A DNA stretch of 61,986 nucleotides, filler included. It is 10 parts of 10 records of this genome, joined end to end, with 100 filler letters (N's around TTAATTAATTAA, not from the genome) between each part and the next. Parts side by side here need not be neighbours in the genome. Positions count along the whole stretch, not along the records: positions 1 to 6,038 come from SRR7504441_5237; positions 6,139 to 11,250 come from SRR7504441_5240; positions 11,351 to 20,498 come from SRR7504441_5243; positions 20,599 to 27,352 come from SRR7504441_5253; positions 27,453 to 30,994 come from SRR7504441_5255; positions 31,095 to 37,344 come from SRR7504441_5257; positions 37,445 to 43,939 come from SRR7504441_5259; 3 more parts are not named here. One strand, 5' to 3'. The stretch's first letter is position 1. Every line of letters begins with the position of its first letter. The translations under genes were made by a program, and so were the position numbers. Shown piece by piece: positions 1,337 to 43,937 of this stretch. Under the pieces are notes generated by a model. It was not told the origin of the DNA. It worked only from the letters and a program-made list of their open reading frames with translations, and made no database searches.

Positions 1337-1369
1337 AGCTGCAATGGGCTCTCAGTAAAGTTAATACTG

Positions 1370-2235
1370 CTAGCTCAGGGTTGTTGCTATTAACTTAGCG
1401 GTGCTAGATGGTGAGCTATGCACGCTTTGCTTGCAGGTAGGGCACACTGGCCTACAAGCAGTGCCTAGCCAACGGCGAATGCAATCCAGGTGAAACGTGT
1501 GACTACACGGTAGTGAGACCACCTGTTCAGCGCTGGCCATGTCCTCTAGGCAGATTGGGCAGCAGTCTCCGGGCAGACCCTCTCTCTTAATCCAATCATT
1601 TGGAATGCTAAACGACCGCGGCACCGCCGGCCTGCCAGCCGGTGGGCGCGACCAGCTGCCCAGCCACCTGTCGCTGACTGAGGGCACACCCGGCCGCCGG
1701 AGCAGCCCCGCTTGTCCCAGCGCAGCCGCCACCCTCTGCCCCGGGCTCGCCTGGCTACCATCGGCCGGGCGCCTGGCCGGCTCGTCGGGCCATCCCGTTC
1801 GACGGCGGCACGATCGGTGCAGGAGTCACACGCACCGCGGGCTGCCGCCTGCGGGGCCGGCGGGGGGGTGGGGCAAGCTCGGCCGCCCTGGCCTCGACCC
1901 GCCGGACCGCCGGCCGGTTGACACGGTGCACCTGCCCACCCTGCCCACCCTCTACACTGTGCGCGCACCTGCTCTGCCAGCGCACCGGCCGCTCGGCGGA
2001 TCGCGCGGGTCTCGCTGCCCAGGTCGGTTGCTGTGGGAGCGGCCGGGCGGAGGGAGACCACCCGCTGCTGCAACGAGCGGATCCTGGCGCTGCGCCGGCT
2101 GGCTGAGAGGCGAGGCGGGCGGCGCCTGAGGGCCGGGTCGTCGGCCAGCAGCGGCAGCTCGAGCAGCTCGCCCAGGCCCCGGTCGATCGAGGCCGCCGCC
2201 CGCTCCCTTCGCGCCAACAGGGGTCCACCCTGCAT
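1370..2235 (-). CDS. RING-H2 zinc-finger protein (putative E3 ligase), spliced
   Basis: C-terminal CPICLEDM..LPCSHTFHLDCIRRWL..CPTCK; frames joined by short introns including a GC-AG intron at 1736-1772 that carries an in-frame TAG. Start approximate. Confidence 0.75.
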
Positions 2236-2343
2236 TGAGAGATTTCCGTTGCGGAAGAACGTTGGACAGGCGGCAACTCCGGCAAGGGCTTGAGCAGCAG
2301 CGGAGGAGCTCCACGGTCAGACCAGATGCCGGGGTCACAATCG

Positions 2344-4941
2344 ATGGGTGCGCGGGCTTAGCGTCGGTACGGCTGAGCCGGGGGCAGGCGCGTTGGAGGG
2401 GCTGGTGCCTCTCGTGAACGACCTCCAAGACATCTTCAACGGGCTGGGCTTCTCTCCCATTCAACTGCCCCAGATCTGCGTACCTGCCCCCTCCGCCGGC
2501 CCCCCAGCGGCGGGCAGACGCTCGGCGGACAATCCGCGGGGAAGAGTTCGGTGCTCGAAGCGATCGTCGGGAAGGATTTTCTGCCTCGTGCGCCTCCCCC
2601 CCCGCCCCGGGCCGCTGACCGGCCGCAGGCGGCTCCGGGATCGTCACCCGGCGCCCGCTGCTGCTCCAGCTGGTCAACCCGCACAAGACCGAGTGGGAGG
2701 AGACCGAGGACGAGGTGCGCTGGCCCACGGCCCACGGCCGAACCGCCCCGGGCCAGACCACCGGCAAGACAATCTGGGTCAACGTACTTACCAACGAGCG
2801 ACGGGACACCGAGCCGCCGCGTACGGCCGGCGGGGAAGGTGCGCCCGGCCGGGTCGGCGGGCGGCTGAGCGGGCGGCAGAGTATGGCGAGTTCCTGCACC
2901 TGCCAGACAAGAAATTCCGTGACTTTGCCGCGATTCGCGATGAGATCGATCGGTACACAGAAGAGACCTGCCCGAACCAGACAGTCTCACCGGAGCCGAT
3001 CCGGCTCAAAATCGTCTCGCCGGACGTGCTCACCATGACGCTGGTCGACTTGCCCGGTATGACACGCAACCCCGTCGGCGGGCAGCCGGAGGATATCATG
3101 ATTCAGATAAACAACATGGTCGAGACGTACATCTCGAACGAGAATTGTATCATCCTGGCGGTCACCCCGGCCAACCAGGACTTGGCCAACTCGGACGCGC
3201 TCGCGATGGCCCGCAAGCACGACCCGAGCGGGACCCGCACGATCGGTGTGCTCACCAAGCTTGACTTGATGGACGACGGGACTGACGCTTCGGGCATGCT
3301 TGAGGGCCGGGACTACCCGCTCCGGTTAGGGTACGTTGGGGTGGTCAACCGGTCGCAGAAGGCAATCAATGAGCGGCAGCCGATGCGAGTGGCGTTTGCT
3401 GAGGAGCGAAAGTTCTTTGAGCAGCATGCAGCGTATCTGCACATGGCCAATAGAATGGGGACAGCCTACCTGTGCAAGGTGCTCAACAAGACGCTGGTCA
3501 ACCACATCAAAGACAAACTTCCGGAGATTCGAGCCAAAATCAACATGATGGCCGCCGCAAAGGAGGCCGAGCTTGAGGAGCTCGGAGGCGACGCCATTCT
3601 GGAGGAAGAAGACAGGAAATATCTGCTGCTCACCACTCTCAACAAGATTGCCAACGACTTTCGCAAGGTGCTCGACGGCACCTCCGAAAAGGTGTCCGAC
3701 AAGGAGGTGATGGGCGGCGCTAAGATCCGTCAGATCTTTGCCAAGAATTTCGCCCAGACGATGGGTGATCTAGTCAAAAGCAACATGCAGGAAATGAACA
3801 AAGAGCTGCCGGTGCTGTTCCAGAACGTCCAGGGCGTTAGCAGGGGCATCTTCGTGCCCGACCGTCTGTTCGAGGTGCTGGTCCAGAAACAGGTCGAGCG
3901 GTTCCGTGACCCGTCTAGGATGTGTGCCAGACACGTTCACGACGAGCTCAACACGCTGGTTAATGACCTCCAGTCGCCGGAACTGTCCCGGTTTGTCAAC
4001 CTGAGGGAGCACGTGGTGCAAGTGATTGCTGGGATGCTGCACTCGCGGCTGCAGAACACCACCGACATGATCAACGGGCTGCTTGATATGGAGCTCAAGG
4101 TAAACACTGAGCACCCGGACTTCGTATCTGGCCAGTCGATGCAGTCACTGTATGGCGAGGACGAGGCGTTCGAGAAGTCAATCGGGACGCACGCGGCGGA
4201 CGATATCGCGATCCCTGAGGAGCAGGAGAAGTACCGGACCCAGATGCTCACGCTCGTGTTTAACCACCTGGATAAGAACCACGACGGCGCCGTCGATATT
4301 GATGAGATCAAGAAGTGGGGAGAGGACCTGCGTGGCAAGCCGTACACTCCGGAGGAGGTGGACAAGATCCTCGAGTCCTTCGATGCCGACCAGAACAAGC
4401 AAATCACGCTCGAGGAGTGGCTCAAGTACCACCGGGTGGTGATCCCGGCCGCCTATTCTGTAGCTCAATTCGACAAGAGCCTGGAGAATTACCTTCCAAA
4501 GAAGACGCTCTCGGAGATGACTACCCGGCTGCCCACTGTGGTCCGGCACGAGGCTATGAGGTCGCAGGACGACACCAAGAAGATGGTGCTCATCGCACGG
4601 TGGGCCGATTGGCTTGCCGGCTTGAGCTGGCGGTGCAGGATGGTCACGGACTACACGTCGATCGTGCACAAGACTGTACAAGACTCGATTCCGAAGGCGA
4701 TCATGCTACTCATGGTCAACGATGTGGCCTACAACGTGCAGGACGAGCTTCTCAAGAGGCTGTGCGCCGTTCCCCGCGGCTGGTGGGCTCACTGGCCGGC
4801 AGGTATCAAGACTCTATGCTCGAGCAGTTGCTTGAGGAAGATCCGGAGATTGATGCACAGCGCCGCCGGTGCAGACAAATGGTCACAGTGCTCAGGAAAG
4901 CTTGTGAGGTCCTCAACACTGTGAACGACAAGACGGTTTAG
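2344..4941 (+). CDS. dynamin-related GTPase (DRP/Vps1/Dnm1-like) with WW-like and EF-hand inserts; 7 introns
   Basis: Removing GT-AG introns 2348-2387, 2480-2517, 2588-2628, 2715-2756, 2839-2879, 4600-4638 and 4762-4802 gives MGALEGLVPLVNDLQD, GGQSAGKSS, GIVTRRP, DLPG, TKLD, a middle domain and a GED (DSIPKAIM..LLEEDP). Confidence 0.95.
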
Positions 4942-5171
4942 TCGCCCGGCAGACGAGACGGGCCGGTGGTAGACTTGTAGGCTAGTTGGCTAGAATGGTG
5001 ATGGGCACAGACTCCGTTTCGGATTGATCTGCTGTCGTTGGCAATCTTGTTAGGTGTCCATGACCAATCTGGCCACTAGCCTGCATTTACTAGATTAGCC
5101 ACAACTGCCGGCATTACAGAGAAAATAAGTTTATCTGCCGCTATTAGTACGTGATTAAGCAGAGTTTTATG

Positions 5172-5863
5172 CTATCGCATGTGCATTTTGTCTATATCCT
5201 CAAAGTCCACACTCTGGCCATCCACAATCCGGAACCGCGCATAGATCCGCCGGCCGTATCTACAGATCAGGCAGAGCCCGCCCACCAGGATCAGGGACCC
5301 GAGCACCGCAATATCTGGGTCCATCAGGATCCAGCACGCCGCGATCGCCGCCAGCATAAACGAGACGATCCCCGCCGCGAACGCAAAGAACACTTGGTAC
5401 CGCTCCTCTATCATCCCATCCACCGCCCGGTTGATCGACCCGTCCGGGCCACGCAGCGCCAGCCCCGGACCTGCCCCGCGCCGTCGGCCGGCCGGAGCTG
5501 GCTCCAGCCACCCCAGACGCAGATGAACGTAGTGCTGCACACGCAGTGCAGCTCAAAGGCCAGGCACAATACTGTAGAGACGTAGAAACAGGTCTGGACC
5601 ACCGATGAGCAGCCCCGGGCCCGGGCCGGCGCCTTGAACAGCCTCGGAGTGTCCTCCGGCACGTGCAGCTCGGCCAGGGCCGTCATCGAGAAACCAGCGA
5701 TCAGCGCGGCCTGCCCAACCCTCTCCGGCGGGCGGGCGGCGGGCGGCGCCTGGGTGCCGACCGCCGAGAAGTTATCGTTGAAGAAGTTGAGCTCCTTCTC
5801 GCGCAGGGTGAGCGCGCTCTGCTTCAGGTTGGACAAGAGCAGCTCCTTGTCCGCGTTCAACAT
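5172..5863 (-). CDS. Orai-like four-TM membrane protein; 3 introns
   Basis: Removing introns 5711-5749 and 5594-5632 (GC-AG) and 5471-5511 (GT-AG) gives NFSAVGTQAALIAGFSMTALAEL (compare Orai TM1 SRTSALLSGFAMVAMVEV), WGPGLALRGPDGS and four hydrophobic segments. Confidence 0.65.
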
Positions 5864-5926
5864 CTTGCCTGCAGCCGCCCGGGGGCAATTTGCCGTTGGT
5901 CACCAGGCGGGTGGCCAGGGTCGCCG

Positions 5927-5980
5927 ATCTCCCCACAGATGGAGGCTGCGGCCATCTCCCCACAGATGGAGGCGGCGGCC
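5927..5980 (+). repeat. 27-bp tandem duplication over a probable start codon of a contig-truncated gene
   Basis: ATCTCCCCACAGATGGAGGC(T/G)GCGGCC twice (5927-5953, 5954-5980), one mismatch. Confidence 0.85.
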
Positions 5981-6038
5981 AAGCTGGGGTACATGAAGCT
6001 CAAGCGTTGGCTGGTCGAGCTCGGGGTGCCCAAGAGCA

Positions 6039-6138
6039 NNNNNNNNNNNNNNNNNNNNNNNNNNNNNNNNNNNNNNNNNNNNTTAATTAATTAANNNNNN
6101 NNNNNNNNNNNNNNNNNNNNNNNNNNNNNNNNNNNNNN
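6039..6138. other. artificial contig spacer (also 11251-11350, 20499-20598, 27353-27452, 30995-31094, 37345-37444, 43940-44039, 48633-48732, 56459-56558)
   Basis: Identical 100-bp N44-TTAATTAATTAA-N44 linkers with stops in all six frames. Confidence 0.99.
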
Positions 6139-6139
6139 C

Positions 6140-9018: not shown

Positions 9019-11135
9019 CTAGCCTCCCTCCTCAAACATCAAACCTGCTACCTAGCGGCCCTCATGCGACACAATCAAATGTAGAACCTCTTCCTCGAAT
9101 GCTGCCAGCTGCTCTTTGGGCATTTCATATGGCGAGTAGGCCTCTCCTGGGAAGCTTTGGTCCCTCACCTGAATGACTGCTCACTGTCACTATATGGTAC
9201 TGACCTCGCTAAACTGACTGTCACTACACCATAATTATACTACGCTGCAATACACTAGATTATTTTGCACTGTGCTACACTGGCCTCGTCTTTGTACTGT
9301 TCTAGCGCTTGCTCAATGAGTTTACCCACTGCAGCGTACTGTTTACAGAACTTGGGCACCACCTGATTGACAGGGGCTCAGCAGCTCAAAGCCGTCTCGC
9401 TTATTATGCTACCTTGGCGTGGTGGTGGTGCTGCATCATTCCAAGCAAGTCGTGGTATACCAGAACCTACCAACAACGCTGTGGCCCAGACGACTAGCAT
9501 GTATGTACAGAGCTATATACTAGAGCTACTCATCGGGCACTGCCCAACAGTGATAGGCACTGCCCACTATCAAATAAAAGTATTGTATGAATCCGATCGA
9601 ATAAAATAGAGATACCCTATAGAATGAATCAGAGAAGTGCAGTGCTTCAGACCAGAGATCGGTTAGCCCGTCTTCAGCCGGGATCAGCATTCTGTTCACA
9701 GATCAGGGGCGCAGGCCCGCCGCACAAGGCCTAAAGCACGCTCAGCCAACAGACAGAACAGCCTCATTCCCAAAGACGCACACATGCGCTTCAAAGACAG
9801 CGGGCAACGATCCGGCCACCCCGCCAGACCCAGCAGCCACAGCGCACTTGATTCAACAGGCAACAGTATCAACGCATCACAGCCACAAGCGTCTCGGACA
9901 CAGCCAGGAAGATGGTCAGCGGACTTGCCATGATCACTGTCACAGTCACAGCGTGAGAATTTCATCTAGCCACAGGGTATCGTTGTTAAGGTCACCAGGC
10001 CACCCCAGGTATACCTGCCCACTGGTGTGGCCTCCAGCCCCGATACCGATAGTTGGAATTTCCACCTGGCCGCTGGCAATCAATCTGCTCACGTGTGGCG
10101 TCTTCAACCGCCTCCGTGATCACTTGGGCAACCCTTGCTGGCACGCACTCGATCACAATTGCGAATGCCCCGGCCTCCTGACACGACATCAGCTGATGGG
10201 TTATGAATATGAGACCTGCAGGGCTCGAGCCTCAAGTACTAGCTGAGTGGCCTTCCGGGCGGTCTTGCCTTGCACTCGAAACCCGCCCAGCGTGCCCACA
10301 GCCTACCGTCACACAGTCAGCCCACCACTGCGAAATTGAGAAATATAGCCAAATTAAGATTGCGTGGCTGCAACTGAATTTGCCTGTGGCATGAGTCCAA
10401 TGTGCCCCATCACAGCCACGCCTCCAGACACCTGGCCTTCAGCCTTGAGAGCTAAAAATAACTGAATAGAATTGACCACTGCTTGCACAGTTTCTATCCT
10501 CTTTGGGCTGCCGCCTTCCAACTTGATGGCATCCATGCTATGAATAGCTCAATCCAGGATGATGCCACAGCTTACCAGCCCTCCTTTATCAGCCGGTACG
10601 CGTTCCGTTGGGCCTCGACAGGGCAAGCTTCGTACGACCCGAACGGAAGGTCGCCCACCTTCACAGGTCCGTCAACGGCCGCAGCACCCCACGGACCAGC
10701 AATGGGCGGTTGCACCCACGCTGAACGGCCTTGCAGTGGCCAAGCATATCGTCCATCGTCACTGGTAGGGTGGTGTCGTGGCCCTGGCCAGCACTCCCTG
10801 GGTTGTTTTTTATTAATTGTCACCAGCTGGACCATTCCAACAGAATCGCCCACCAGCACAATGTCAATTCCGGCTTTGTCCACATGCACCTTCCAGCACC
10901 GTCACCTATTTATATAATCCCCTCTCTAGCACCGCGGACGGGAAGTCGTAGGCGGTCACCATCGAGATTTTCTGTCCGCGGGCGCGCATACGCTGCAACT
11001 CGACCTATTATAGCCCATCCGTCCGGCAGCCCAGCTGCCGCACACGATGTTGATGTTCTTGCGTGGAGGAGCCGGTGCCGCTGGCGTGCACAGCCACTGC
11101 GCCCGCCCGACCACACGACACCGGACGCCGGACAT
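9019..11135 (-). CDS. panB: 3-methyl-2-oxobutanoate hydroxymethyltransferase, about 14 introns
   Basis: Spliced exons give [67 protein letters not shown] and PKFCKQY; the [12 protein letters not shown] segment resembles plant enzymes. Confidence 0.93.
9611..9981 (-). ncRNA. candidate structured RNA inside panB intron 9467-10014, family unidentified
   Basis: Nested stems 9970-9981/9611-9622, 9728-9739/9642-9653, 9889-9897/9770-9779 and 9841-9847/9784-9790; non-Watson-Crick positions are G-U on the transcribed strand. Confidence 0.5.
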
Positions 11136-11350
11136 AGCGGTCTAGATTGAGTTCTCTAATGCCGTTAGAGATCTGCCCTACCGTAGTACTTGAAGCGGTA
11201 GACCGGATCGAGGCTAGGAGGCATAGATGTGTAGCCCGGTAGCTCGGTCANNNNNNNNNNNNNNNNNNNNNNNNNNNNNNNNNNNNNNNNNNNNTTAATT
11301 AATTAANNNNNNNNNNNNNNNNNNNNNNNNNNNNNNNNNNNNNNNNNNNN

Positions 11351-14152
11351 ATACTGTATTTGATCCCAATCCAGCGCTTCAAAGTCAGCTGTCGAGATCC
11401 GAGACATGACTAAGCCCTTCTCTAATTCGACCCCATGTCTTGACTCAATCTTGCGAGCAGTGGACGCATCTTCCCACGAGCCAGCCAGATAGACCCACTC
11501 GCCCTGCTGCGCGATCCCTGAATACCAATGGAGGTTCCGTTGCTTGTTCATGTAACTACGCGTGTATTTCCAGCCATTCACTGGAGCTTCGGGGTTCTGC
11601 ACGATGAACACCAGTGTGCCCTGCGAGCTGAACATGGTGTGTGGTGCTAGCCAAAAGTCTGCTCCAAGCAGGTAGAGCCGTCGGTTGAGCATCAGTCCAG
11701 TGAATATCCACCACCAATGCTCCTGGTGCACTTGCCTATCAGTCCGTCCAGGAGGTTTCAATAGATCTACTGCCAAACCGCCTGCCCCCATCTGCAGGTG
11801 CAGACAGCTCGAGTTGGCCTGGCTCACCACAAACGCATTTCGAGGTAATGCCTTACCCTCTCGAGAACATGCCTGGGCATCATATCGGCCCCAGACTGTA
11901 TCTCCGAGCAGCCACAGCATCCGGGGCTCATCGGTTTGCCTGCCATTCAGAAGCGGGGGGAGCTGTATTGAGGTGGCTATGTCGGAACCAAGCATGCCTT
12001 GCAGCTGTACGCCCAGAGCTCGAACCAGTCCAGGCACCGCCTGTGGCACAAGACGCCACCCGTTGAGATCAACCGCGGTCGGCTGCCCTGGCTCCACAGG
12101 CAAGGCACATTTTTGCGTTTGATGCGCTGACAGAAGCGGAACGTTGCAGAATGCAGCCGCACTAGTCAGTGAACGGGGCTTACGGTTGCTCGCGGCGCTC
12201 TGCAGCGGGTATCGGATGTCTTGATGCGACAAGAGTGGCTTACACTGTGTGTCTGATGCAACGGCCGACGAATTTCCCGGAAGATGCCAGTAGATTATAT
12301 GAGCACACAGCGCAGACTGCACCACAGAGCTGCCCAGCATTGGCAGTGAGCCTGCAGCCTGCTCGAACAGCGGCGCGTGGCTGTAGCCCAAGTCTGAAAA
12401 CCGATGCACCCTGAACGGATCCACAAACATAGCCACGGCTAGAGTGCGGATAGGGGCGTCGCCCCACCTGTGAGTGTAAATCCCACCCGCTTTCCGAACT
12501 GAGTCCATCCATCGCTGCACTGGTGCAGATTGCCACACTGTAGCGTGTGAAATCTCAAAGTTGTTATAAAAGACAGCTTCGATGGGCCACTCATAGAAGA
12601 AGCTCGCCTCGGTTTCCGTGTCACTAAGGTGGTCCTGCGCCAGCTCCCACAGCCCGCTCACGCATTTAGGCTCCTCCTGGACCACAGAGACGTAAGAGTA
12701 CAGCATGTTGTTGGTCGCCATCATCTCGAACACGTCATAACCGATGGGCGACGGCAGTCTGGAATCGTCGTCCAGCCTCCAGTGCCACTCGAATCCCATC
12801 GCACTCAACAGTTTTGAAGCCTCAATTGCGTGGAATCGACACATGTGCCTGTACGAGAGCTGCCTTGGGCCGCACTCGGTGCTCTCCGGCACGCTCTCCG
12901 GTTTCAGACTCGGCTCGAGCGCTCCAAGCGACAGCTCCACCTGCGCAAATCGCACCCAGGACCACTGGCCGTCCATTGTGAGCATCTGCTGCGCCTCGGT
13001 GCTCAGTCCGCTTTCGTGGAACAGCACAATCGGGTAGCGGTACTGTGCATTGAAGTGCAAGTGGAGCTGCCGCAGCGTAATTACGAGCTGTGAGAGCCGT
13101 CCGGTATTGACTAGAAAGTAAATGGCCGCTCTGAGCCGGGTGGGCTTGCTGAAAAGCAGGCGAGGCGAAAGGCGGGCCGGCTCTGCTGGCAGCAGTTTGT
13201 TCCGGATGAACGAATACTCGCAGGCTGTAGGCAGCTGGCCGGTCAGCGTGGGCCCGATGTTGACCTCGCGGGCGAACGCCCGCATGTTGACGGCTTCCAG
13301 GTGGCCGAATAATTCAAACATGCGCTCCTGGATCGCAGCTGAGCTCGAGCTGTTGCCCAGGTGCAACTCTACCAACAGCTGGTCGAACGGCATGGCCAGC
13401 CCAGCCTCGTTCAGCGCTTCAAACACGGCCCACTCACAGCCCTCGCAGTCTATTTTGAGCAGCGACAGGTGCGAGTGCCCGAGTGATGCCATGTGCCCAA
13501 GCAGAGAGTTGGCAACTGGCCAGGTCCGGTCCTTGCCTGGGTGCGCACTGAGCGCCGCCTTGTGGAAATGCAGCTCTGGCGCGGCGTACCTGGGCAGTCC
13601 GCCCACCGTCGGGTCAAACACGTGCACTTCGCACCGGCCGGCCGACCGGGACAGGATTTCCTGCTCAAACGTCACGTCGTCCCGCGCACCGAACGAGTAC
13701 ACCACGCAGTTGGGCGACGATCCGAGCGCGTCTGGCTCGCAGACCCACTTGCCGCCGTCGCCCAGCCGGCCGAGCCGCTCGACCGACGGGCAGCTGAAAT
13801 CTGGGGCGAACCAGTCCCAGATGTAAACCCCGCGCATCACGTCCCATGGGTCGAACCGGCCGTTGATCAGGTTCTCGAGCGCCCCCCGCCGCCGATCCAG
13901 CCCGCGCCGGTACAGCTGCTCGGCCCGCGCCATCCAACCGCCGGACTCCGGCTCCGGGAGCCGGGAGCCGGCCACTCGGCGGGCCACGGTGGGCGAGAGC
14001 GTCGGGAGCGCCTCGGGCGCCCGGGGCGAGAGCACGAGCCAGAGAGCCCCCAGGCTGGCAACAGCCAGCACCAGCCCGATCCGGCCCCGGAGCGAACCCG
14101 CCGCACCCCTTAGCGGCGAGTGCGGAAGGGCGCGGGCCGGCGAGTGCACCAT
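11351..14152 (-). CDS. type II membrane fusion: METTL24/Methyltransf_22-like + GT15 (KRE2/KTR-type) mannosyltransferase + DUF4185-like domain; 3' truncated
   Basis: N-terminal TM; GDGGKWVC, VYSFG, LKIDCEGCEW, QLLVELH (MTase); YRHMCRF, WRLDDD, FYNNFEI, GGIYTHRWGDAP (GT15); LWLLGDT (DUF4185-like, weaker). Confidence 0.85.
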
Positions 14153-14251
14153 CTCCCGCTCGGCTATGCTCGGGTCTCCGGCGGTAACGCAGGAGCGGCA
14201 ACGGAAGCTGCCGGCTGCTCGATCCGTGACTCTGTGGATCACTACGAGGGG

Positions 14252-15431
14252 ATGCTGCCTCGGCTGCTGGTGGGGTTGGCTGGGGTCGGCCTGGCACTGG
14301 CCGGTCTGCGGGCCGCGATCCGACGGGGCAAGCGGGCTAGGCTGATACGAGCGCTGCCAAAGGCCTGCCTGCACGAGTGCGGCCAGCCGGCGCGCGGCCG
14401 GCGAGCTGGTCCGGCAGGCACCTGAACGGCTGCATCCGGGCCCAGACGCTGCGCGAGCTGTGCCTGGCCAAGCGAAGCGGGCTGGACGACCTGGACCGGG
14501 CGCTGGCTGTGATCGACCTGCCCGACCGCTCGCTGGGCGACTGCTTTGCCATCTTCGACCTGATCCACCGGGCGGTCGACGGGCTGCCCGCGGTCCGCAG
14601 GGTGGCCCGGGAGGCGCTCGAGGACTTCCAGGCGGCCGGCTGCCTGTGGGTCTGGCCGGAGGCGCGGTGTGACTGGCCGGCAGGTACCTGGAGCTCCGGA
14701 CCACCCCGCGGGGCGCGAGCAAGCGGCGGTACCTGGAGGCCGTCATCCAGGAGATGCGCGACTGGCCCGGTCCAATGGTGCCCCGGCTGCTCGTCTCGGT
14801 CGATCGGACCGCTGGACCGGCCTCCGCGATGGAGACGGCCGAGCTTGCGGTGTGTCTGGCGGCCGAGAGCCGGTTTGTGGTCGGATTAGACTTCAGCGGC
14901 AACCCGACAAAGGGCTGCTTCAAAGATTTCGTGCCGGCGTTCGAGCGGGCCCGGGCCGGGGGGCTCCGGTGCGCGGTGCACTGCGGGGAGACAGCTGGGC
15001 CGAATGAGAACCCGATGTTTGCTGTCGGGTTTGGGGCAGATCGGCTGGGGCACGCAGTGCACTGGCCGGAGGGGCAGCTAGAGCCGCTGCTCAGAGCAGG
15101 CACCCCGGTGGAGATATGTCCGACCAGCAACCTCAAGACGCTCCAGCTGAGCAGACTAGAGCAGCACCCCACGCTCGGAGCGCTGCTGCAGGCGGGCCAC
15201 CCGATCAGCATCAACTGCGATGACTGCGGCGTGTTCAGCAACGACATCTGTGCCGAGTACGCGCTGGTCAGCCGGGTGTTTGGGCTCTCGGTCGAGCGGC
15301 TCGGGCGGATTGGGCTGGCTGCGCTAGATCAAGGGTTTGCAGATGACGGCCTTAAGGCTCGGCTGAGACCGGTGTTTGAAGCAAAGCTAGCAGAGCTTGG
15401 CATCCAATTGACCGACTCGACTGATGCGTGA
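14252..15431 (+). CDS. ADAL: adenosine deaminase-like protein (N6-methyl-AMP deaminase type), 2 introns
   Basis: Spliced LPKACLHEHLNGCIR, YLELRTTPR, GLDFSGNP, VHCGE, RLGHA, EICPTSN, NCDD. Confidence 0.85.
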
Positions 15432-32752: not shown

Positions 32753-35700
32753 TTACTCGTAGTTGCCAGTGTTTGCGGCTAAAAATGGTGCAACCACAAG
32801 GGACATAGTCGCCAACAACTTGATGAGCACATGCAAGGATGGCCCTGCGGTATCTTTGAATGGATCTCCAACTGTATCACCTGTAACTGTTGCCTTGTGG
32901 CATTCACTCCCCTTTCCACCATATGCTCCAGTCTCGACGTATTTTTTTGCGTTGTCCCACGCCGCACCCCCATTGTTAAAGAACATGCCCATCATGATCC
33001 CTGTGGAAGTTGCAAACATGATGAAGGAGGTGAGACACTGCGGCCCGAGCAGGGGCTGGTCTGTCATGTGACCAAGGTATTTGAAAAACCATCCAGTAGC
33101 AAGAGGAAAGAAAACAGCCAGAGCGCCAGGAGTGATCATCTCCTTTAATGCACGTGCTGATACAATCGCTACACCTGAACCACACCACAAGCTCAGCGAA
33201 GATCACAGCGAAAAGGCATTACATTGATGATAGTCGGGCAACTGAGTGCCACTCATAATCTCGGGACGATCCTTGAACTGCCGCCGAACTTCTCGCACCA
33301 CCTCCGCTGCAGCATTGCCAACAGCCGTGATGGCAAAGGCTGAAAAGACAAACACAAGCATGGAACCCAGCATCCCTGCCACATAGATTTCTGGGGTGGA
33401 TATATCGATCACTGTCAAGGGTGTCCCGGAAAACTGCGATACTTCATCCATGAAAGCTGAGAATAAGAGGAAGCATGCCAGTGCAGCTGAGCCCACAGCA
33501 TAGCCCTTAGTAAGAGCCTTGGTAACATTCCCCACTGCGTCCAATTGGTCAGTGATATCTCTCACACCCTCTGGCTGATTTGACATCTCGACAATTCCTC
33601 CAGCATTGTCTGCAATCGGACCAAACACATCCATGGCCAGAATGAAAACTGCTGTGGAGAGCATTCCTAGGGTCCCAACGGCTGTGCCAAAAATACCACC
33701 GTGCACTGTGCCAGCTGCGTTGGTGATTCCAGAAGTCTTTCCGAGGTAAAAGGTGGTAAGAATTGCGGCTGTGACTGTCAAGACTGAGAAACCAATGGAC
33801 ATAAGACCCACACCAACCCCTGCGATGACGTTGGTGCCATGCCCTGTTTTTGAGGCTTCAACAATTGACCTCACTGGGCCGTAGTTGTAATCAGTGTAGT
33901 ACTGGGTAATGAGAACAAACATGTAAGCTGTTGCAATTCCAGTGACTCCGCAGAGGGCAAAATGCCACCATGCATCCGGAGCCTGCTCAACATGCAGCAT
34001 GCATCGGCTGGCCATCGTGAAGAATACCAGCGCGAGGATAATTGATACTGCATATCCACGCTTGAGGATGAGGAGGGGGTCTTCATTTTTACCCCTGCCA
34101 GCAGCCGCTCAGAGTGCAACAAATTTGAGTGAGAGAATTATCAATGCTCACAGTGCAGTGTATGGAGCTCCAAAAAAGTCATGAAGGCCACCACGGGTGT
34201 TGATAGTGATAACCCCCAATCCCGACAGAACCAGGTCGAAGGCGTGAATTACCTGTTTCAGCCAGACTCAGCATTGAGCACGCAGGCGATTGTTTGAGCA
34301 CTGACCAGGGGGAACATCACAAAGCCTGCAGGCTCCTTGATGCCTGCAGAAGTTGCGAACTGACCACCAAGAATCATTGCAGAAATTATCTCAGCTGAGA
34401 TGCTCTCAAAGAGATCTGCACCACGTCCCTGCCACACATAGCGATCAAGTCTAGCATACTACTTGAAGAAGGTAAGTAAATAGATGGCATGAAACACTGG
34501 TGGTAAGGAAATCCATCAGCACTGACGAGCTGCGGTCTCCAGCTACCAGTGAGCAAGACCACAATTAGCGAGCTGATGCCAGACAAGCTAATCACAGCCT
34601 CTTGATCTAAGCACCCTCGTAGAGTCCGGGAACCACTGAAAAGGCTACAGACAGGATAGAGTGCTGGGATTTTGCTTTCAGGGGAGTTAATGAGTACTCA
34701 CCGCACAGTCGCCAACGTTGTCGCCGACCAGATCAGCAATTACAGCAGGGTTGCGCGGATCGTCCTCGGGGATGTCTTGCTCGAGTTTCCCGACCTGAAA
34801 TCATCACTCATGCAGGCTTAAGAGGCTGATGGAACCATGTCAGCGCCCACATCTGCAGCCTTGGTGTATATTCCACCGCCGAGCTGAGCAAAGAGAGCCA
34901 CAAACGAGGCACCAAAGCAGTAGCCGACCAGGAGCAGAGGTACTTGAGCCAGAGATATGCCCTTCGAGTGAGCTGATCCTGCGGGAGAGTAAGCAGAGCA
35001 CAACAGCAGACAGTTTCACCGCCAAAAAGCGTGTACGCAATTAGGAACAACGCTGCGATCCCTATCAGCGTGAGAGCTACTACAATCACTCCGCAGAAGG
35101 CTCCACTCCGAAGGCAAACTTGGATTGTCTCGTGGTAGGACCTGCGGGCGACCGACGCAACACGAACATTTGCTCTCACAGAAGACCACATGCCCACGTA
35201 GCCTGAAATTCCGGAGCATAGGCAGCCGCTCAGGAAGCTGAAGCTTGTGAAGAAAGCAACGCTTGTGGTCGACAGGCCAGTGCTATCCGGTTTGCGGTTT
35301 GTGTACAGGAAGAAAAGGAACACGGCCATAACAACAGCCAGTCGGAAGATCATCGTGTATTGGGTTTTCAGAAACCCTTCTGAGCCCTCACGGATTGGCT
35401 CTGACACCTGGCACACACAGATTTGGTACAGCTCTGGAGAGCACCAACAGACCTGCTTCATGGCTGGTGAACCACTGTCTTTTGCTAGTACCCATTTGAT
35501 CAGCCATGACGCAAACACGAGTGAGCCGCCAGCATATCCGATCACGAGTAACATGTTCAGCATCCACGAACCCTGCACAGACCCAGCAGTGAGCCGCTGC
35601 CCCTTCGGCAAACAAACAGCCTTAGATCAGCAAGTGGCGCGGACCTGGCTGATAATCAGGAAGGAGACGACCACCGCTGCCGCGAGCACCCCGGCGAAAG

Positions 35701-36437: not shown

Positions 36438-37106
36438 TCATCCCAGGCTCACAGTGTCACGGCCCTCTGTGCATTTGATCCGAGACCTGCCCACACACTG
36501 CTCAGCGCTGAGTCTGACTGACGGCCACTCACCGTTGTTGAGAGCCGCGACCACCTTCTCCGATTTGGGAAAGTCAAAAGCTGTCGCGCCGTCTTTGGCA
36601 GGGAGTTCAACGTTGGCGGAGGCATCCACCAGCTCTGCGACCACCGCGATGTTGCCTCGCTGCGATGCGATGTATGACGGAGACCGCCCCCACTTATCTT
36701 CCGCATTCGGATTAGCGCCCCCCGCCAGCACCAGCTGCACGCACGCCACGTGGTTGTAGGCGGCGGCGAAGTGCAACCCAGTCCAGTTTTCCACCGCGTC
36801 GGGCGTATCGAGCGCAATGCCCCCCTGCACCATCGCACGAACAGCGTTTGCAGTGCCGTCCGCGCAGGCCCCGTGCAGTGCGGTGCGCCCCATCGCGTCC
36901 AAGAGATCGGCGTTGGCCCCCTCCCTAAGCAGCCATTCCACCACCTCGGAGCTGTTCCCTTCGCAAGCCACGTGCAGAGTGGATTTGCCATCCGGGTCAT
37001 CCTGCGGCACAAACGTGACTGCCCCGCCCGCGTTCCGTGCATCGATGCAGGTGTGCATGTCGCCTCTCGAGGCCGCTGTGCGCAGCCGCCGGCTCTGAAC
37101 TTCCAT
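36438..37106 (-). CDS. ankyrin-repeat protein
   Basis: GKSTLHVAC, GRTALHGAC, WTGLHFAA and GRSPSYIA repeats; the 3' end may be spliced. Confidence 0.85.
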   Translation of the reverse strand: MEVQSRRLRTAASRGDMHTCIDARNAGGAVTFVPQDDPDGKSTLHVACEGNSSEVVEWLLREGANADLLDAMGRTALHGACADGTANAVRAMVQGGIALDTPDAVENWTGLHFAAAYNHVACVQLVLAGGANPNAEDKWGRSPSYIASQRGNIAVVAELVDASANVELPAKDGATAFDFPKSEKVVAALNNGEWPSVRLSAEQCVGRSRIKCTEGRDTVSLG

Positions 37107-37239
37107 CGCAACCTGGCTGCAAGGTTTGTTGTGCGAATCGATGTAACGGCCTTCTCTGCACGCGGCACAGCGGCACAGAACCCGCCCGGTGCAACTGCGA
37201 GCCCGCTACGAGCCCGCGATCACGATGTATACATCAGGG

Positions 37240-37301
37240 CACATCACGATCGATCATGACAAGTCAGGACCACATCATGATCGATCATGACAAGTCAGGA
37301 C
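37240..37301. repeat. 31-bp tandem duplication
   Basis: CACATCAYGATCGATCATGACAAGTCAGGAC twice, one mismatch, near a contig end. Confidence 0.85.
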
Positions 37302-37696
37302 CTCTTTGGACACGAAGTGATTGGCACTGTACATAACAAAGCTGNNNNNNNNNNNNNNNNNNNNNNNNNNNNNNNNNNNNNNNNNNNNTTAATTAATTAA
37401 NNNNNNNNNNNNNNNNNNNNNNNNNNNNNNNNNNNNNNNNNNNNCAGTTGACGATCTCGAGAAAATACATAATTATGATTTTTTAAGTTCAAAGTTCGAA
37501 TTCAAGAGTCGTCTGTAGATGGTCTATAGAGTCGTCCGTTTACAATCACGACAATCATAGTGCCAACTTTTGCATACTTCCAGTGACGCCTGGCCGCGCA
37601 ATGCGATCTAGGCTTAAAAAAGCAGCAATTCTCATTCAACCGGTAGCCATTGACACAAACGACACAATTCTGGGCGTGTAGTGCTGTGCTAGTTTG

Positions 37697-40345
37697 CTAC
37701 TCGTCCATCTCAAAGCCTGTGGCCTCGAGCTCGATCACCATCGAGAGCACGTGCACCATCTCCTCCTTTGTCGGATAATCTGCCCACCCGCTCAGCCAGA
37801 GCACCTGCGCCGCGTCACCAGGCAAGTCCAGGGTATTGAAGCAGGTGTGAGCCCTAGGCAGCGGCGAGGTCGGCTTGCCAGGTTGGTTTGTAGTGGCCAC
37901 TAACGTCACTTGGAACAGTCGGCTCACCTGCGCCATCCCGTGAGCGGCCTACTTAGACCCATCTTTACCCCGCGGCCAGACTGGAGGCCGGCGAAGCCTT
38001 CGACGGGCAGGTTGGTGGTGCCGGTGGTGAACTGGAGCAGCTTGCACCTTTGCTCGTCGCTGAACTCTCGAACAACCTCCCAGAACCATTTCACCACCTG
38101 GTTGTCGGCCCTGGTGCTCCGGTAGACTGTGTGCGACTCCCAGTCATCCACGTCGATCTTGGAGACGCCGCACGCCAGCAGCTCGAGCTCGCGATACGAG
38201 AAGACCGAGAGGAGCTCGGATGGGATCACAGAGAAAAGTCCGGACGCGAACGCGACCCGCTGGTGCTCGACTCGTGTACAGAGCAAGTACGAGAGCTTGG
38301 ACCGAATGTACTCGAGCTTGTTGTCGTTGGTTACGTCGATGTTCCGGCCGTTTGGGCAGAGATCGTGCACCACCATGTCACCGAACGCGTCCTCTGTTTC
38401 GACAGAGAAAGTCTCATACAAGATGTCGGTGATGTCGTTCTGGAGTGTCCAGACCATGCTGTCGTGCTGCCCGAGGTCGACTGACTGAAGGTCGGACATG
38501 GTGGGCTCCATCCGGAGCAGGAACTTGTACATCGGGATGATGAAGTGGGTGTGGATGTACATCCCGTCCAGGATCATCTTGCCAAACACTTGTCCGGCCA
38601 GCTTAAACAGGTTCAAGTGGTTTGGGTGGATCGTGCCCGAATTAGGGTTGACCATGTACGTGAAGTTGCTCCCCTCGGACCGCTGGAACAGCCCGAAGTC
38701 TGGATTGAACAGCTGCTCCTGCGCAAGCAGGTAAACCTCTCTGCTCACGCCGCCGACGTCAAGAGTAAAGTCGGTCTCATCTTTGATTGCATATAAAAAC
38801 TGTCGGTTGAACGACCCAGGCGGCAGCTTGCTGAACGCCGAGACCAGGTCGTCCAGCAGGAACTGCCGTCGGACCCAAATCTTTACGGGCCCGCCCTCCG
38901 CGTGCATTGAGAGTTGCCTTTGCTCGAGCTCGTGCCGAAGCCACTTGCGCCGGAGTTCCAGGCTGGCGTTTGCGACGTCCTGCAAGTCCTTGAAGCCCTT
39001 GAGCTGGAGCGCCAGTTGGGCGTCGTCGCTCCGGATCCGCCAGACTTGGCCGCCGTCGTCTGTCCTCTGCACCCACCAGACCATCCGATGGACAGGACAG
39101 TCGCGTGGCCTCTCAAACGCATCCGGGTCGTCCGGCCGGCGCTGCTCGGGCCGGATGTACCTGTCGGACATCCAACGGACAGTCCCGAGCGGGTCGAGAA
39201 CTCTCAGGTTGAGAAACTGCATCGACTCAGGGTCGGCGATCGCGAGGACTTCAGTGCCAGATTCCTCACGGATCGGCATCCAGCCGCCTGCGGAAGACGA
39301 GTGCGCCATCTGCTGGCCCGAGAGCGAGTCGACCACCACCGCGTCGATCACCAGCACCTCTCCCTTCCGGCAGGTGTTCTTCCGGCCCTGCGGCATCCTG
39401 TCCCGCCAGTCAGCTCGGAATCGCACCAAAGGCTCGCACCGCTCCTCGAAGTCCGAAGAGCACCGGAGGGTCACGCCGCTCTGCCAGACGACCTCGTACA
39501 GCGTCGGGTCCATCCCAGGGTCCCGGGCCTGCAGGATCTACCCCCCCCCCCTGAGCTGGCGCGAGCTGGCAGCGCACCGCACTGCCTTCGATAGAAATCG
39601 GGAGCCAGCCGCCGGCGCAATGGATCATCTCGACGTGGTATCCGTTCTCTCGGAAGTGCGTGACCACGTGCTTGGCCCACACCATCGAGCCCACCCGGGG
39701 GCCGACACCGTGCTTGATCACGTTCTCTAGTGTGGGCGCTGACCGGTAGTCGACGTGTTGCATCACCTCGAACAGCTTGGTCTCGTAGGCCTGGGAGCGC
39801 GGAATAACCATCTCGGCGTCGCGCACCATCGCGCTCTCCCGCAAGTCTGGGTCGAGCCGGGACGGGTCGGCGACCGGAGGCGCGAGGCTCGAGGCGCGCA
39901 GCCTATTGATGTGCTGGGTGTTGCGGTCGCGGGCGCTGAGGTGGCGGTTGGTCCACACACGGAGCTGCGACGGGGCTTGGTTGGGCACCGCGCTGGCCGC
40001 GTCCGGGATCGTGATCTGGTTCGGCTGTGTGTTGGCCCGTCGAGGATTCGCCCGGCGGGTGCGCGGCTGGCCCTGGGCAGACTGGGTGCGGGCGGGGGCC
40101 GCCGCGGAGGCGGGGAGGGTCCAGTGGGTGGTCCTGGTGTTAAAGTCGATGTAGTAGTACCGCCGCTGCCGTGAGTCCCACATGCGCTGCCAGTTGGGCG
40201 GCAGCGGCTGGTTATCGTTTTGGACAGCATGCTGCGCGTTGATGTCGTTGTTGAGCGCCCGGTCCACCCGCTGCCGATTGAAGTTCTGCACGCTACTCGA
40301 CGGCGGCGCATGGTTCTGCGCCTCCGGCTCGGTGCAGTTACCCAT
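37697..40345 (-). CDS. HECT E3 ubiquitin ligase with WW domain (NEDD4-like), 3 introns
   Basis: WW LPPNWQRMWD..YYYIDFNTRTTHWTLP; HECT DVGGVSRE, WFWEVV, LLQFTTGT, LPRAHTCFNTLDLP. Confidence 0.92.
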
Positions 40346-40445
40346 ACCGAAGGTGCGCCCGCCGCGGTCGCGCTGTGCCTTGTCCTCCGCTCCTGCTTGC
40401 TCAAGTGCGGCCGTTGCGTTCCCAACGGCAAGTCAGTGAATCCAC
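40346..40445. promoter_or_regulatory. 100-bp bidirectional promoter with an inverted pair of YAACGG (Myb-type) sites
   Basis: Between divergent ATGs 40345 and 40446; CCGTTG at 40411-40416 and CAACGG at 40423-40428; the same hexamer recurs near many other gene starts. Confidence 0.6.
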
Positions 40446-41156
40446 ATGCCGCGGCTGCTGTTCGGCTGGACAGCCGCGCGACGCTTGCTCAGCTCCAAGT
40501 CGGGGATGGCCGTCCCTGAGCTCGGGACTACCTCCAAGGACGCAGCCGGGGCCCGGCAGCTCTATGACAAGTGGGCCGACGGCTACGACCAGGCGCTCAA
40601 GTCGTGGGCGTACCCGGTCCCGGACCGCGTAGCCGAGGAGCTCGCAGGGCTGGGGGTGCCCAAGCAGGGCAAGCTGCTCGACCTCGGGTGCGGCACTGGG
40701 CTGAGTGGAGAGGCCCTGCGGCGAGCCGGGTTTGACGGGCAGCTGGTTGGTGTGGACATCTCGCCGGTCAGCCTGGAGGTGCTGATGAAGGACAAGCCCG
40801 GCCTGTACGACGCCTCGGCAGTGGGCAACCTGGACCAGCCGATCCCGCTGGAATCTGGCCAATTTGACGCGGTGGTGGCGGTTGGGGTGCTGTCGTACGT
40901 TCAAGACTTTGGTTCGCTGTTCGGCGAGGCGGCGCGGCTGTGCAGGCCTGGCTCTGGGGTCTTTTTGTTTTCTCATCGTGACGGCCTTTGGGATGGGGAC
41001 GAGCGCGGCTGTAAGACGGCGGCTGCTGGGCTGGAGCAAGACGGGCGCTGGAGGCAGCTGATCGAGGGCGAGCCTGAAGCCTACATGCCGGACAACCCGG
41101 ACCCCAAGGAGAGCTGCAAGCGCGTTCGGCTGATAGCGTACCGGCGGGGTGCATGA
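40446..41156 (+). CDS. class I SAM-dependent methyltransferase (METTL27/WBSCR27-like)
   Basis: YDKWADGYD, LLDLGCGTGL, GVDIS, FDAVVAVGV; possible N-terminal transit peptide. Confidence 0.85.
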   Translation: MPRLLFGWTAARRLLSSKSGMAVPELGTTSKDAAGARQLYDKWADGYDQALKSWAYPVPDRVAEELAGLGVPKQGKLLDLGCGTGLSGEALRRAGFDGQLVGVDISPVSLEVLMKDKPGLYDASAVGNLDQPIPLESGQFDAVVAVGVLSYVQDFGSLFGEAARLCRPGSGVFLFSHRDGLWDGDERGCKTAAAGLEQDGRWRQLIEGEPEAYMPDNPDPKESCKRVRLIAYRRGA

Positions 41157-41602
41157 GTGAGCGGCCCGTTCGCTTGGTTGGAAGTGTTGACCGTGTTTGG
41201 GCGGCGGCTTACAGACCCACACTGCCCCCAGATTGAGGAGCTAGGCCTGGACTGCCCGACAGATCTGGAGGGCCAGATGAGCTGTTATGTAGCTGTTATG
41301 ATTCTGGAAGCACGACAACGTTCAAACTCGGTTTCATTAGTCCCAAGCCCCTTAGTGTGCAGCTGTCTCTTGCGATCGACAACGGAACAAAGGCCATTTC
41401 GAGTTCGCTCAACTGTGATCGACAAACACGACAACACGACAAACAGTGCTCACTTGATATTGACTCCACGAGTACTCTAGTTATACTCTAGTTGGTCTAG
41501 TATATACTCCAGGGTACTCTGGTTGGTCATTTACTCGTCAATTATTTTATTTTAAAACTCTCAGTTTTTGCGCAGCACGTCAGATAAGTACGTACAAATA
41601 AT

Positions 41603-43937
41603 TCATTTGGACCGCGAGCAGTAAGCAATCACACCACAAACGACCACACCGACCACGAAGAACGAGATCTCAAGAATCCCGAGGATCCGCTGTTGGGTAT
41701 CCCGCTGCCTCGGATTGTCGTTCACACCGGACTCCGCGTCGAATTGAAGAGGGACGTACTTGACCTTCCGATAGCCCTCAAAGTTACTCAAATGCTCATT
41801 CTCCACCCGAATGAACCCCCACATCGTCCTGCGCACAATCTCTAGAATCCCGAGGAACGGAGTGAACACTTTGCCGAACGGGGTCTTGTTGTCCCTTGGG
41901 ATCAAACTGAGTACCCACAGATATCGCAGGAACAAGTCGAGTACCACTGCCATGTAATACCCAGACCGGCTCTTGAACATCATCTTGGAGCGGAGCCCGG
42001 CGTGCTTCCAGTCGGCTAGCCCCCAGTCCTGCACCACGTCCCAGCTGTACGTGTACAGCGTGCTCAGAATGCAAAACACTATGAACACCACGTGAGACAC
42101 CGACATCACGTGCACGTCATACAGATCGGGACTGAATGTGCCAAACCAGACAACACTCGTGGCAAACGCGTATTTGAACGCGTTGGCCAGGTTTGGCATC
42201 CGAGCGCCGGTGTCTCTGTACTTGCGCAGGCACTGCATCATTTGGATCACAAGCGGGAAGGCGGATATGAGAGGCAGCATGATTGTGACTAGTGTCGAGC
42301 CATCTTGGAGCCCCTGAGGCCCGTCCGGATCACAGTTCCATAGCCACTCGTCACACTTGCCGAACGCCCTGCCCGAGAACACAAAGACCAGTGTGTGGAG
42401 CAGGTCCTGCATAGGCTTGACCAGGCTGGTCAGCCAGTCGCCTATGAACGTGTGGAAGAATGTGACCTGAGCGAACGGTGCCCGGACGACTCGGCACAGT
42501 GACTTACACAGGCACCGTTGGAGCATGAGCTCTCGACTGAGCACCAGCACAAAGTATGCCAGCAGTGCGAGCACGTAGTAGTTGATATCTATCGTGGCAG
42601 GAAACTCTTGGATCCTCACCTTATTATAAAGCAAGAACACCGCAAAGTACGCAAAAGACAAATGAGACGCTAGCTGGAACACCTGGCCGCCGTCTGTGCG
42701 GCCAGCCCCGCCGGGCGCCTGGGTGTGGTTCTGGGTTGAGTGAGGCGCCAACTCGAACAAGTAGAGAGCGTTGACTCTCGCGGAGCTCCATACCCACAGG
42801 CTGATACCCCAGCACCACACGACCGAGCACACACATCCAAGCAATCTGAACACCTGTCCAGGGCTCGAGCGCGCCCGCGGCAGGCTGCACCGGGAACCCG
42901 ACAGTGTCCACTAGATCCTTGTTCTCCGGCTTGACCGGCTTGGTGTTGACTATTTTCGGATCTATCAGAATATCCCACGCCAGCCAAAACCTGCCCCCGG
43001 TGAGCTCTCGCCAGCCCCCGAGCCACCCGAGAGTGAGCGTGATCCCAATCCGGCTGCCCATCATGAAAAGCCCCCAATTCACGCGGCTCCCATGCTTGAC
43101 TAACAGTTCACCCCTCGCGACTCTCCGATCGCCTCCCGTAAACAGATCCGCAAACTGTACCTCGGCTGTGGTGATCATCTCATCGAGCCGCCCGCCGTCC
43201 GCGAACCCCTTGGCCTCCAGCGCTGTCTGCAGCGCGGCCTCCAGCGCGTCCAGCCCCTGGTCATGCCCCGGCTTCTGCGCCTTCACAAACTTTTTCAAGC
43301 TCTTCACGAACCTGCGCCCACCGGTCGCCCACCGCCGCCGGCCGCCGCACCCCGTGTAATTGAGCGCCGAGAAATTCTTGAGCAGATTCAGCTCCCGGAA
43401 CAGCTCGGTCAGCTCCCCGCGCACAGACTCCCAAGACACCGGCCCCAGTCCGCTGATCGGCTCCTCGCCGTCGTCCAGCCTGCCCGGCCGCTCACCTGGC
43501 CCGGCGGCCGGCGCACGAGGAGTGGTCCGTGTGGAAGGAGCGGTGCGGCTGTAGCTCGGTCCGGGCCGGGACTAGCGGCGCGTCCGGTCCGGAATCTTCA
43601 GGCTGGAGCTCGGGTGGCCTGGTTGAGTCGGTCGCCCTCACCTGCGCCGCGTCCTCCTGGATCGCCTGCAGCCACTGCCCAAACTGCCCGGCCCGCTCAG
43701 CCGGCCCAGCAGCGGCCGGGCGCCTCGGCCAGCTGGCTTGAGAAGAACCGTTCCACCTGTGTGCGGTCAGCCGGCCAGCAGCGGCGCGGGTGCCTTGTCC
43801 AGCTCGGCACGGAACTTGGATTCGAACCCGCTCGACTCGTGGCCCAGGTAGGCGGCCTGCTTGAGCTGCCCGTAGTCCAGGTAGAACTGCTGCCACTGCG
43901 GCCGCATCGAGCCGGCCAGCCGCTGCCCGAACTTCAT
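41603..43937 (-). CDS. XPR1: SPX-EXS phosphate exporter (XPR1/SYG1/PHO1 family), at least 6 introns
   Basis: MKFG..YLDYGQLK, ELDK|VERFF, LNYTGFVKSLKKF (SPX); IGDWLTSL, NAFKY, YSWDVVQDWGL, EIVRRTMWGFIRVENEH (EXS). Confidence 0.93.

Follow-up and report, generated by a model that had tools for sequence, protein, structure and literature searches.

This study investigated why nine short segments of a 61,986-base stretch of DNA (hereafter, the window) begin with GC and end with AG at places where genes appear to be interrupted: are these segments introns with GC donors, and does their frequency point to relaxed or modified recognition of the 5′ splice site, as a preliminary description of the DNA had proposed? 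The window consists of ten contigs placed end to end and separated by spacers, each made of 44 N, TTAATTAATTAA, and a further 44 N. The claimed GC introns are spread over three separate contigs, namely contig 1 (positions 1-6038), contig 2 (6139-11250), and contig 7 (37445-43939). Because the contigs were joined, features that seem to span the window sit on separate contigs, and a single organism is not proven.

The genes in the window were eukaryotic and included those for a dynamin, Nup160, a HECT ligase, an SPX-EXS protein, an H+-pyrophosphatase (H+-PPase), SUV3, and panB. Searches with three genes of contigs 1 and 7 gave proteins from EukProt transcriptomes as the best matches. The dynamin was 65% identical to P0001, and the Orai-like protein was 83% and 64% identical, in two matched stretches, to P0132, both from Telonema subtile (EP00656); judging from the protein matches, Telonema subtile appears to be the closest named relative of the source organism. 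The guanine-plus-cytosine (G+C) content was 56-63% in the contigs and 71% at third codon positions.

Intron status of the GC-AG segments

All nine segments lie on the minus strand, follow an exonic AG, start with GC, and carry AG at the 3′ end, as the preliminary description had reported. Seven of them start with GCGCC or GCACC, and the remaining two, both in panB, start with GCAAAT and GCCAGT (Table 1). We employed a junction enumerator that tried all possible pairings of donor and acceptor within a region, with any dinucleotides, and scored each spliced translation against a homolog. For introns i1 and i2 of the SPX-EXS gene, enumeration against the Telonema-like SPX-EXS protein P0121 revealed that GC-AG was the sole AG-ending placement among the top-scoring ties. 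Removing i1 restored the sequence ELDK/VERFF and removing i2 restored SQLAE/FGQW (slashes mark junctions), and the two introns flank an exon of 33 nucleotides (nt). Intron i7 corresponds to an exact 12-residue gap in P0121, which is 57% identical over the EXS half of the protein, and its enumeration score was within 1 point of the best. In the Orai-like gene, the 13 residues encoded by o1 and the 13 encoded by o2 were both exactly missing from the Telonema transcript proteins P0131 and P0132.

These comparisons with related proteins support the identification of i1, i2, i7, o1, and o2 as introns. The enumeration fixed their boundaries to within a slide of 2 nt, since the placements AG...GC and AG...AC tied in score with GC...AG; this ambiguity had been foreseen. 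For all five, GC-AG was the sole AG-ending choice among the top or near-top ties. The earlier statement that several of the segments are forced by frame, an internal stop, or a conserved motif stood for i1 and i2, which change the frame, and failed for i7, o1, and o2, which are in frame and stop-free.

The two GC segments of panB, p6 and p11, were judged with Pfam PF02548. Profile positions run 142/143 across the junction of p6, and this contiguity supports p6 as an intron; an alternative GT donor 9 nt downstream would insert three residues. The panB junctions at profile positions 50/51, 79/80, and 171/172 were likewise contiguous. Removing p11 produced an uninterrupted panB reading frame of 278 residues that runs to a stop codon. 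The exon preceding p11 ends at position 250 of the 259 profile positions, and the last exon had no Pfam match; the call of p11 leans partly on what we take to be the PanB C-terminus, which Pfam did not confirm. Segment p11 is therefore a probable intron, less firmly placed than p6. The two candidate introns of the RING-finger gene sit in a low-complexity stretch that is open in another frame.

A search of the window for the motif AGGCGCC-N26-36-CAG returned nine matches at eight distinct sites, compared with 4.05 ± 2.26 in shuffled sequences, and 2 of 100 shuffles reached nine. The motif alone was thus just modestly enriched, and homology carries the case for the introns. Two matches on the plus strand were rejected as chance: the one at 47905-47944 is antisense to the resident gene by open frames, and the one at 50082-50126 lies inside a single continuous high-scoring coding frame.

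We further examined the orthologous positions in relatives. The environmental proteins P0133 and P0134 derive from gene calls in which introns were read through, and at the Orai intron positions they hold inserts whose lengths differ from those in the window. At the position of o1, the insert of P0133 starts with Val and ends with Gln, and at the position of o2, the inserts of both proteins start with Val. All three inserts with a visible start begin with Val, which is always encoded by GTN, and all three with a visible end finish in Gln, which fits CAG. The Val starts indicate that the orthologous introns have GT donors in the relatives and GC donors in the window. A metagenome scan with the Orai-like alignment returned three distant loci (34-43% identity), which were uninformative on donor switching; the sole locus covering the Orai intron positions had no insert there and one elsewhere. 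As a separate observation, the gene calls of the environmental ENA proteins P0133, P0134, and P0285 translate through Orai-like introns and have thereby placed intron-encoded inserts in databases.

Transcript evidence came from five poly-A metatranscriptome runs that held 5-7% of the contig 7 words, four of which were compared with contig 7. The resulting RNA contigs skipped three GT-AG introns of 39-41 nt, one in the SPX-EXS gene (i4) and two in the HECT gene, close to its 3′ end. This finding indicates that introns of the ~40-nt size class are spliced in vivo.

Table 1. Coordinates of genes, introns, candidate introns, and spacers in the window (a slash marks the exon-intron junction)
Feature	Position	Strand	Length (nt)	Borders	Remarks
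SPX-EXS gene	41606..43937	-			seven introns: three GC, four GT
SPX-EXS intron i1	43757..43793	-	37	AAG/GCACCC...CACAG	frame-changing; stop in upstream frame
SPX-EXS intron i2	43684..43723	-	40	GAG/GCGCCC...GGGCAG	frame-changing
SPX-EXS intron i4	43312..43350	-	39	GT-AG	in frame, stop-free; skipped by a contig of run X2; 13-residue gap in P0121
SPX-EXS intron i7 (EXS domain)	42683..42718	-	36	CAG/GCGCCC...GGCCAG	in frame, stop-free
Orai-like gene	5175..5863	-			three introns: o1 and o2 (GC), 5471-5511 (GT)
Orai-like intron o1	5711..5749	-	39	CAG/GCGCCG...GGGCAG	in frame, stop-free
Orai-like intron o2	5594..5632	-	39	AAG/GCGCCG...GTCCAG	in frame, stop-free
panB gene	9054..10989	-			eleven introns: nine GT, two GC; introns AT-richer than on contigs 1 and 7
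panB intron p6	10303..10383	-	81	CAG/GCAAAT...GGTAG	in-frame stop
panB probable intron p11	9169..9284	-	116	GAG/GCCAGT...TTCAG	frame-changing
RING-finger gene, candidate intron	1736..1772	-	37	CAG/GCGCCC...GGGCAG	from sequence only
RING-finger gene, candidate intron	2090..2125	-	36	CAG/GCGCCG...GCGCAG	from sequence only
HECT gene intron, near 3′ end	37928..37968	-	41	GT-AG	skipped by a contig of run X2
HECT gene intron, near 3′ end	37780..37818	-	39	GT-AG	skipped by contigs of runs X1 and X2 (one study)
Dynamin-like gene	2387..4938	+			six introns, no GC donor; enumerated against Telonema subtile P0001
Dynamin-like introns	2480-2517, 2588-2628, 2715-2756, 2839-2879, 4600-4638, 4762-4802	+	38-42	GT-AG	
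Spacers between contigs (starts)	6039 (to 6138), 11251, 20499, 27353, 30995, 37345, 43940, 48633, 56459

Donor frequency and donor anatomy

We compiled a catalogue of 49 introns in two tiers. Tier A comprised 25 introns (19 GT and 6 GC) for which RNA, close homologs, or contiguous Pfam positions gave support, and tier B comprised 24 introns (23 GT and 1 GC), namely the frame-forced junctions and the remaining junctions of panB. Calling junctions solely by open frames and codon scores yielded many GT-AG and GC-AG solutions per junction and ranked an RNA-verified intron just fourth; this mode of calling was therefore confined to the second tier. GC donors accounted for 7 of the 49 introns, a rough share of 14%, and for 9 of 51 when the two RING-finger candidates were added, which is far above 1% and agrees with the frequent GC donors of the preliminary description.

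Most of the introns were 36-50 nt in length. All 49 ended in AG, and the acceptor was CAG in 43, TAG in 4, and AAG in 2. Among the 45 introns of up to 60 nt, 12 measured a multiple of three, and at least 7 of these were open in the coding frame and concealed within open reading frames. The panB gene carries one long intron of 548 nt (9467-10014, minus strand) among ten short ones, and the H+-PPase gene carries one of 273 nt at 34429-34701; set against the short introns, these two seem to place intron lengths in two classes.

The results revealed a marked dependence of GC donors on the exon end. An exonic AG preceded all 7 GC donors, whereas it preceded 14 of the 42 GT donors (Fisher p = 0.0014); in tier A, the corresponding counts were 6 of 6 and 4 of 19 (p = 0.0012). 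The exonic AG likewise preceded all nine of the segments originally claimed. Inside the intron, the GT donors were themselves degenerate: +3G (GTG) was found in 26 of 42, +4A in 10, +5G in 20, and +6T in 12. The supported GC donors mostly lacked +4A and +5G, as had been described, with +4A in two of the seven and +5G in one. Intronic complementarity of the GCAAGT type was absent from five of the seven, and these five had C at both +4 and +5. The preliminary description had also named GTGCGC(C) as the common GT donor; it is the commonest hexamer, but it occurs in just 6 of the 42 GT donors.

Toward the 3′ end, an adenosine with a predicted branch role lies 10-15 nt from the intron end in all seven supported introns and in both candidate segments. 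The GC-rich introns contain very few A residues; this adenosine is the sole internal A of i2 and of o2, lying 14 nt (i2) and 13 nt (o2) before the intron's 3′ end. The five introns with GCGCC or GCACC donors had a G+C content of 78-88%. The exon after the intron started with GT in 24 of the 49 cases, and the exon before it ended with G in 42, a context that resembles a strong proto-splice site. With junctions reading G/GT...CAG/GT, many of the introns can slide by 1-3 nt without changing the mRNA, as the comparison with RNA contigs also indicated.

Two special intron types were considered and discarded for these segments. U12-type introns carry a rigid donor of the RTATCCTT type, and such a donor was absent from all nine segments. 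Nonconventional, structure-guided introns of the euglenid kind have variable borders and a stable structure in which the intron ends pair; they were rejected on the uniform GY...AG borders and on the lack of excess folding, the mean folding z relative to shuffled sequences being -0.23 for the GC introns (7) and the GT introns (40) alike.

Several further observations concern the remaining gene models. In the dynamin-like gene, a seeming GCGCC donor at 2588 belongs to a GTGCGCC donor by which an Arg codon is split, which illustrates how easily the GC and GT donor classes are confused. The protein encoded by this gene carries a pair of EF-hands between the middle domain and the GED, in the place that the PH domain occupies in classical dynamins, and this layout is common to Telonema and several environmental proteins. 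The HECT gene contains a further probable GT-AG intron at 39538-39577 (minus strand) with a run of 11 G, which would end in TAG rather than CAG. One long open frame at 11351-15328 (minus strand) links a Methyltransf_22 domain with a Glyco_transf_15 (alpha-1,2-mannosyltransferase) domain, and it may hide in-frame introns. An Rfam scan of the window found one transfer RNA (tRNA) only and no small nuclear RNA (snRNA) gene. The tRNA-Asp at 191-264 was backed by both Rfam and ARAGORN. A 94-nt tRNA-Asp reported by ARAGORN alone at 56130-56223 (minus strand) lies within a reprolysin-like open frame, had no Rfam support, and is probably a false call.

Explanations for the frequent GC donors

On the basis of these findings, the GC segments are probably ordinary introns of the major (U2-type) spliceosome in a GC-rich relative of Telonema, with donor use shaped by G+C content. 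Under the mechanism that we propose, the intron side of the 5′ splice site would carry little information in the source organism. The last exon base or bases would define the site, together with G at +1, a purine at +3, and a short, constant spacing from the branch adenosine, which lies 11-15 nt upstream of a CAG that hardly varies. With T at +2, nearly all exon ends would suffice; with C at +2, the exon would have to end in AG, and this exonic AG would make up for the U1 and U6 contact presumed lost at +2. GC-biased substitution pressure could then turn GT into GC wherever the exon end permits, and we propose that GC donors are frequent because of this pressure. The requirement of GC donors for an exonic AG is the usual compensation logic shifted to the exon side. 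In the proposal of relaxed or modified recognition, the relaxed part fits these data; the relaxation, however, is not specific to GC donors, because the GT donors are degenerate as well (see the +4 and +5 counts above).

A number of points weigh against this interpretation. The RNA contigs covered none of contig 7's three GC introns and are uninformative on them either way, and we infer the removal of the GC introns from the proteins of relatives and from reading frames rather than from RNA. Of the five GCGCC-type introns, three keep the frame and contain no stop, so that their retention as coding inserts in the source species would be formally possible. The GC share of 7 of 49 is rough because two of the four homolog-backed genes were chosen for holding claimed GC introns; the other two contained no GC donor among 10 resolved introns (dynamin, 0 of 6; H+-PPase, 0 of 4). 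Tier B junctions were selected by judgement on typical length, donor, and CAG end, a procedure that favours GT, and eight ambiguous junctions (ef1, ef3, ef4, suv1, h2, h6, h7, and nupA) were excluded; of these, h2 and h6 of the H+-PPase gene stayed ambiguous even with six homologs. The GCGCC consensus is possibly inflated, since the sites were originally found by that motif. In this small sample, GC donors were not significantly associated with intron G+C content (5 of 23 GC-rich introns versus 2 of 26 others, p = 0.23). The introns of contigs 2 and 6 are AT-richer, and these contigs are not shown to share an organism with contigs 1 and 7.

The three in-frame segments i7, o1, and o2 might be species-specific coding inserts rather than introns, given that their lengths are multiples of three, that they are stop-free, and that the RNA contigs gave no coverage of them. 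Each of the three nevertheless corresponds to an exact gap in Telonema proteins whose flanking parts show ~57-83% identity, and all three start with GC after AG, end with CAG, and measure 36-39 nt. The relatives, moreover, hold unrelated inserts of other lengths with GT...CAG-type ends at the same two Orai positions, and the RNA-verified intron i4 of the SPX-EXS gene is itself in frame and stop-free. We therefore regard the coding-insert explanation as very unlikely. It is also highly improbable that the tiny GC-rich introns originated by copying of a mobile introner family, in which case the shared GCGCC and GGCTGAGCGGG blocks would be family sequence rather than splice signals. Among the 47 short introns, the best pair (i2 and d4) had a similarity of 0.49, compared with at most 0.43 in 30 interior-shuffled sets, and the neighbours i1 and i2 (43684-43793, minus strand) share a block of ~20 nt before the branch region, with a similarity of 0.45 against the same shuffled maximum of 0.43. 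This similarity is marginal and limited to the donor and branch regions, however, and the Orai intron positions are common to relatives whose inserts differ in length and sequence, which argues that the Orai introns are old. An introner family in the window was rejected, for no near-identical copies were present among the 47 short introns. Gene conversion or the local copying of an intron may have left the block shared by i1 and i2.

Two further explanations place the change in the splicing machinery. The 5′ end of canonical U1 snRNA is of the ACUUACCUG type, and an altered U1 (or U6) might pair with GUGCGCC and read AG/GCGCC shifted by 2 nt, the cut being fixed later by U5, U6, or Prp8. Such pairing would agree with the presence of GCGCC at +1 to +5 in four supported and two candidate GC donors, with its presence at +3 to +7 in 4 of 18 GC-rich GT donors (and of GCGCT in two more), and with the C at +4 and +5 that recurs among the GC donors. 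A U1 tuned to this sequence would nevertheless leave most introns unpaired, given the scarcity of GTGCGC among the GT donors; the GC donors of contig 2 depart from it altogether, and the GCGCC consensus is subject to the ascertainment noted above. An altered U1 or U6 is accordingly a very unlikely explanation. The slide ambiguity also accommodates a non-canonical chemistry in which the intron starts 2 nt upstream, with borders AG...GC or AG...AC, the final AG is kept, and the transcript is the same: the slid placement tied with GC-AG at all five GC junctions enumerated against homologs, and an exonic AG precedes every one of the nine candidates. We know of no spliceosome that uses AG...GC borders, all 42 catalogued GT introns end in AG, and an exonic AG before GC donors is a known compensation in other eukaryotes; this chemistry is thus extremely improbable.

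A lineage-specific change beyond passive GC drift could take either of two forms. Pairing between U1 and the intron may be nearly dispensable in telonemids, with the site defined by the exon end (AG or G), +1G, and a ruler-like branch distance in introns of ~40 nt, or the 5′ end of U1 may, by co-evolution, read the G/C-rich core GCGCC in either of two registers (GU-GCGCC and AG/GCGCC). We consider a change of this kind unlikely. The interpretation of ordinary U2-type introns in a GC-rich genome accounts for the GC-donor habit through G+C pressure, and the data fit such pressure as its driver rather than a new splicing machine.

Significance and comparison with known systems

The chief value of these findings is practical and lies in accurate gene prediction. 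Gene callers built for GT-AG introns, or for none, mis-translate the source organism, and claims of domain fusion or insertion for its genome need such introns removed first. Frequent GC donors are an already known consequence of GC-rich genomes, weak recognition holds for all donors in the source organism, and the observation opens no new question by itself. It extends the short list of GC-rich protists with many GC donors to the telonemids, heterotrophs whose placement is uncertain, and it supplies a concrete case of introns with GC donors in the window whose orthologues in relatives have GT donors. A literature search for telonemid nuclear introns, at the level of titles, found no paper on the subject.

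The GC-AG introns of animals, fungi, and plants retain near-consensus intronic positions. Those of the window differ in carrying C at +4 and +5 in five of seven cases. According to Frey and Pucker (2020; PMC7072748), GC-AG introns make up ~1% or less in animals, fungi, and plants; these are U2-type introns that share with the window the GC...AG borders and a strong preference for an exonic AG.

Emiliania huxleyi offers a close parallel. According to Feldmesser et al. (2014; PMC4028052), ~60% of its donors are GC, as verified by reverse-transcription polymerase chain reaction and RNA sequencing, in a genome of 65% G+C; the authors credit the G+C content and report that standard gene finders miss such introns. 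On that account, the window is similar to Emiliania huxleyi in representing a GC-rich marine protist with very frequent GC donors and an acceptor that stays AG. It differs in that its GC share of ~14% of 49 introns comes from sequence, whereas the ~60% of Emiliania huxleyi is RNA-verified, and in that its introns are mostly 36-50 nt.

A similar frequency is found among pelagophytes. A preprint (bioRxiv 10.1101/2024.10.30.620910) gives ~14-17% predicted GC-AG introns for Aureococcus anophagefferens and Pelagomonas calceolata, credited to high G+C content, and 0.32% for their low-GC relative Aureoumbra; the GC-donor share of the window (14%) is about the same as that of the former two. Pelagophyte introns, according to the same source, have mean lengths of 103-177 bp and occur in small numbers in each gene, whereas those of the window are ~40 nt and dense (11 in panB and 7 in the SPX-EXS gene). 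The lineages also differ, since pelagophytes are stramenopile algae and the window derives from a telonemid-like heterotroph. As far as these sources go, the premise of the preliminary description, by which GC donors are normally rare with near-perfect compensation, does not extend to all eukaryotes, given the GC donors of Emiliania huxleyi (~60%) and of Aureococcus and Pelagomonas (~14-17%). With at least 10% GC donors (7 of 49, a rough share), AG acceptors that are kept, and a high G+C content, the window exhibits the pattern of these GC-rich protists.

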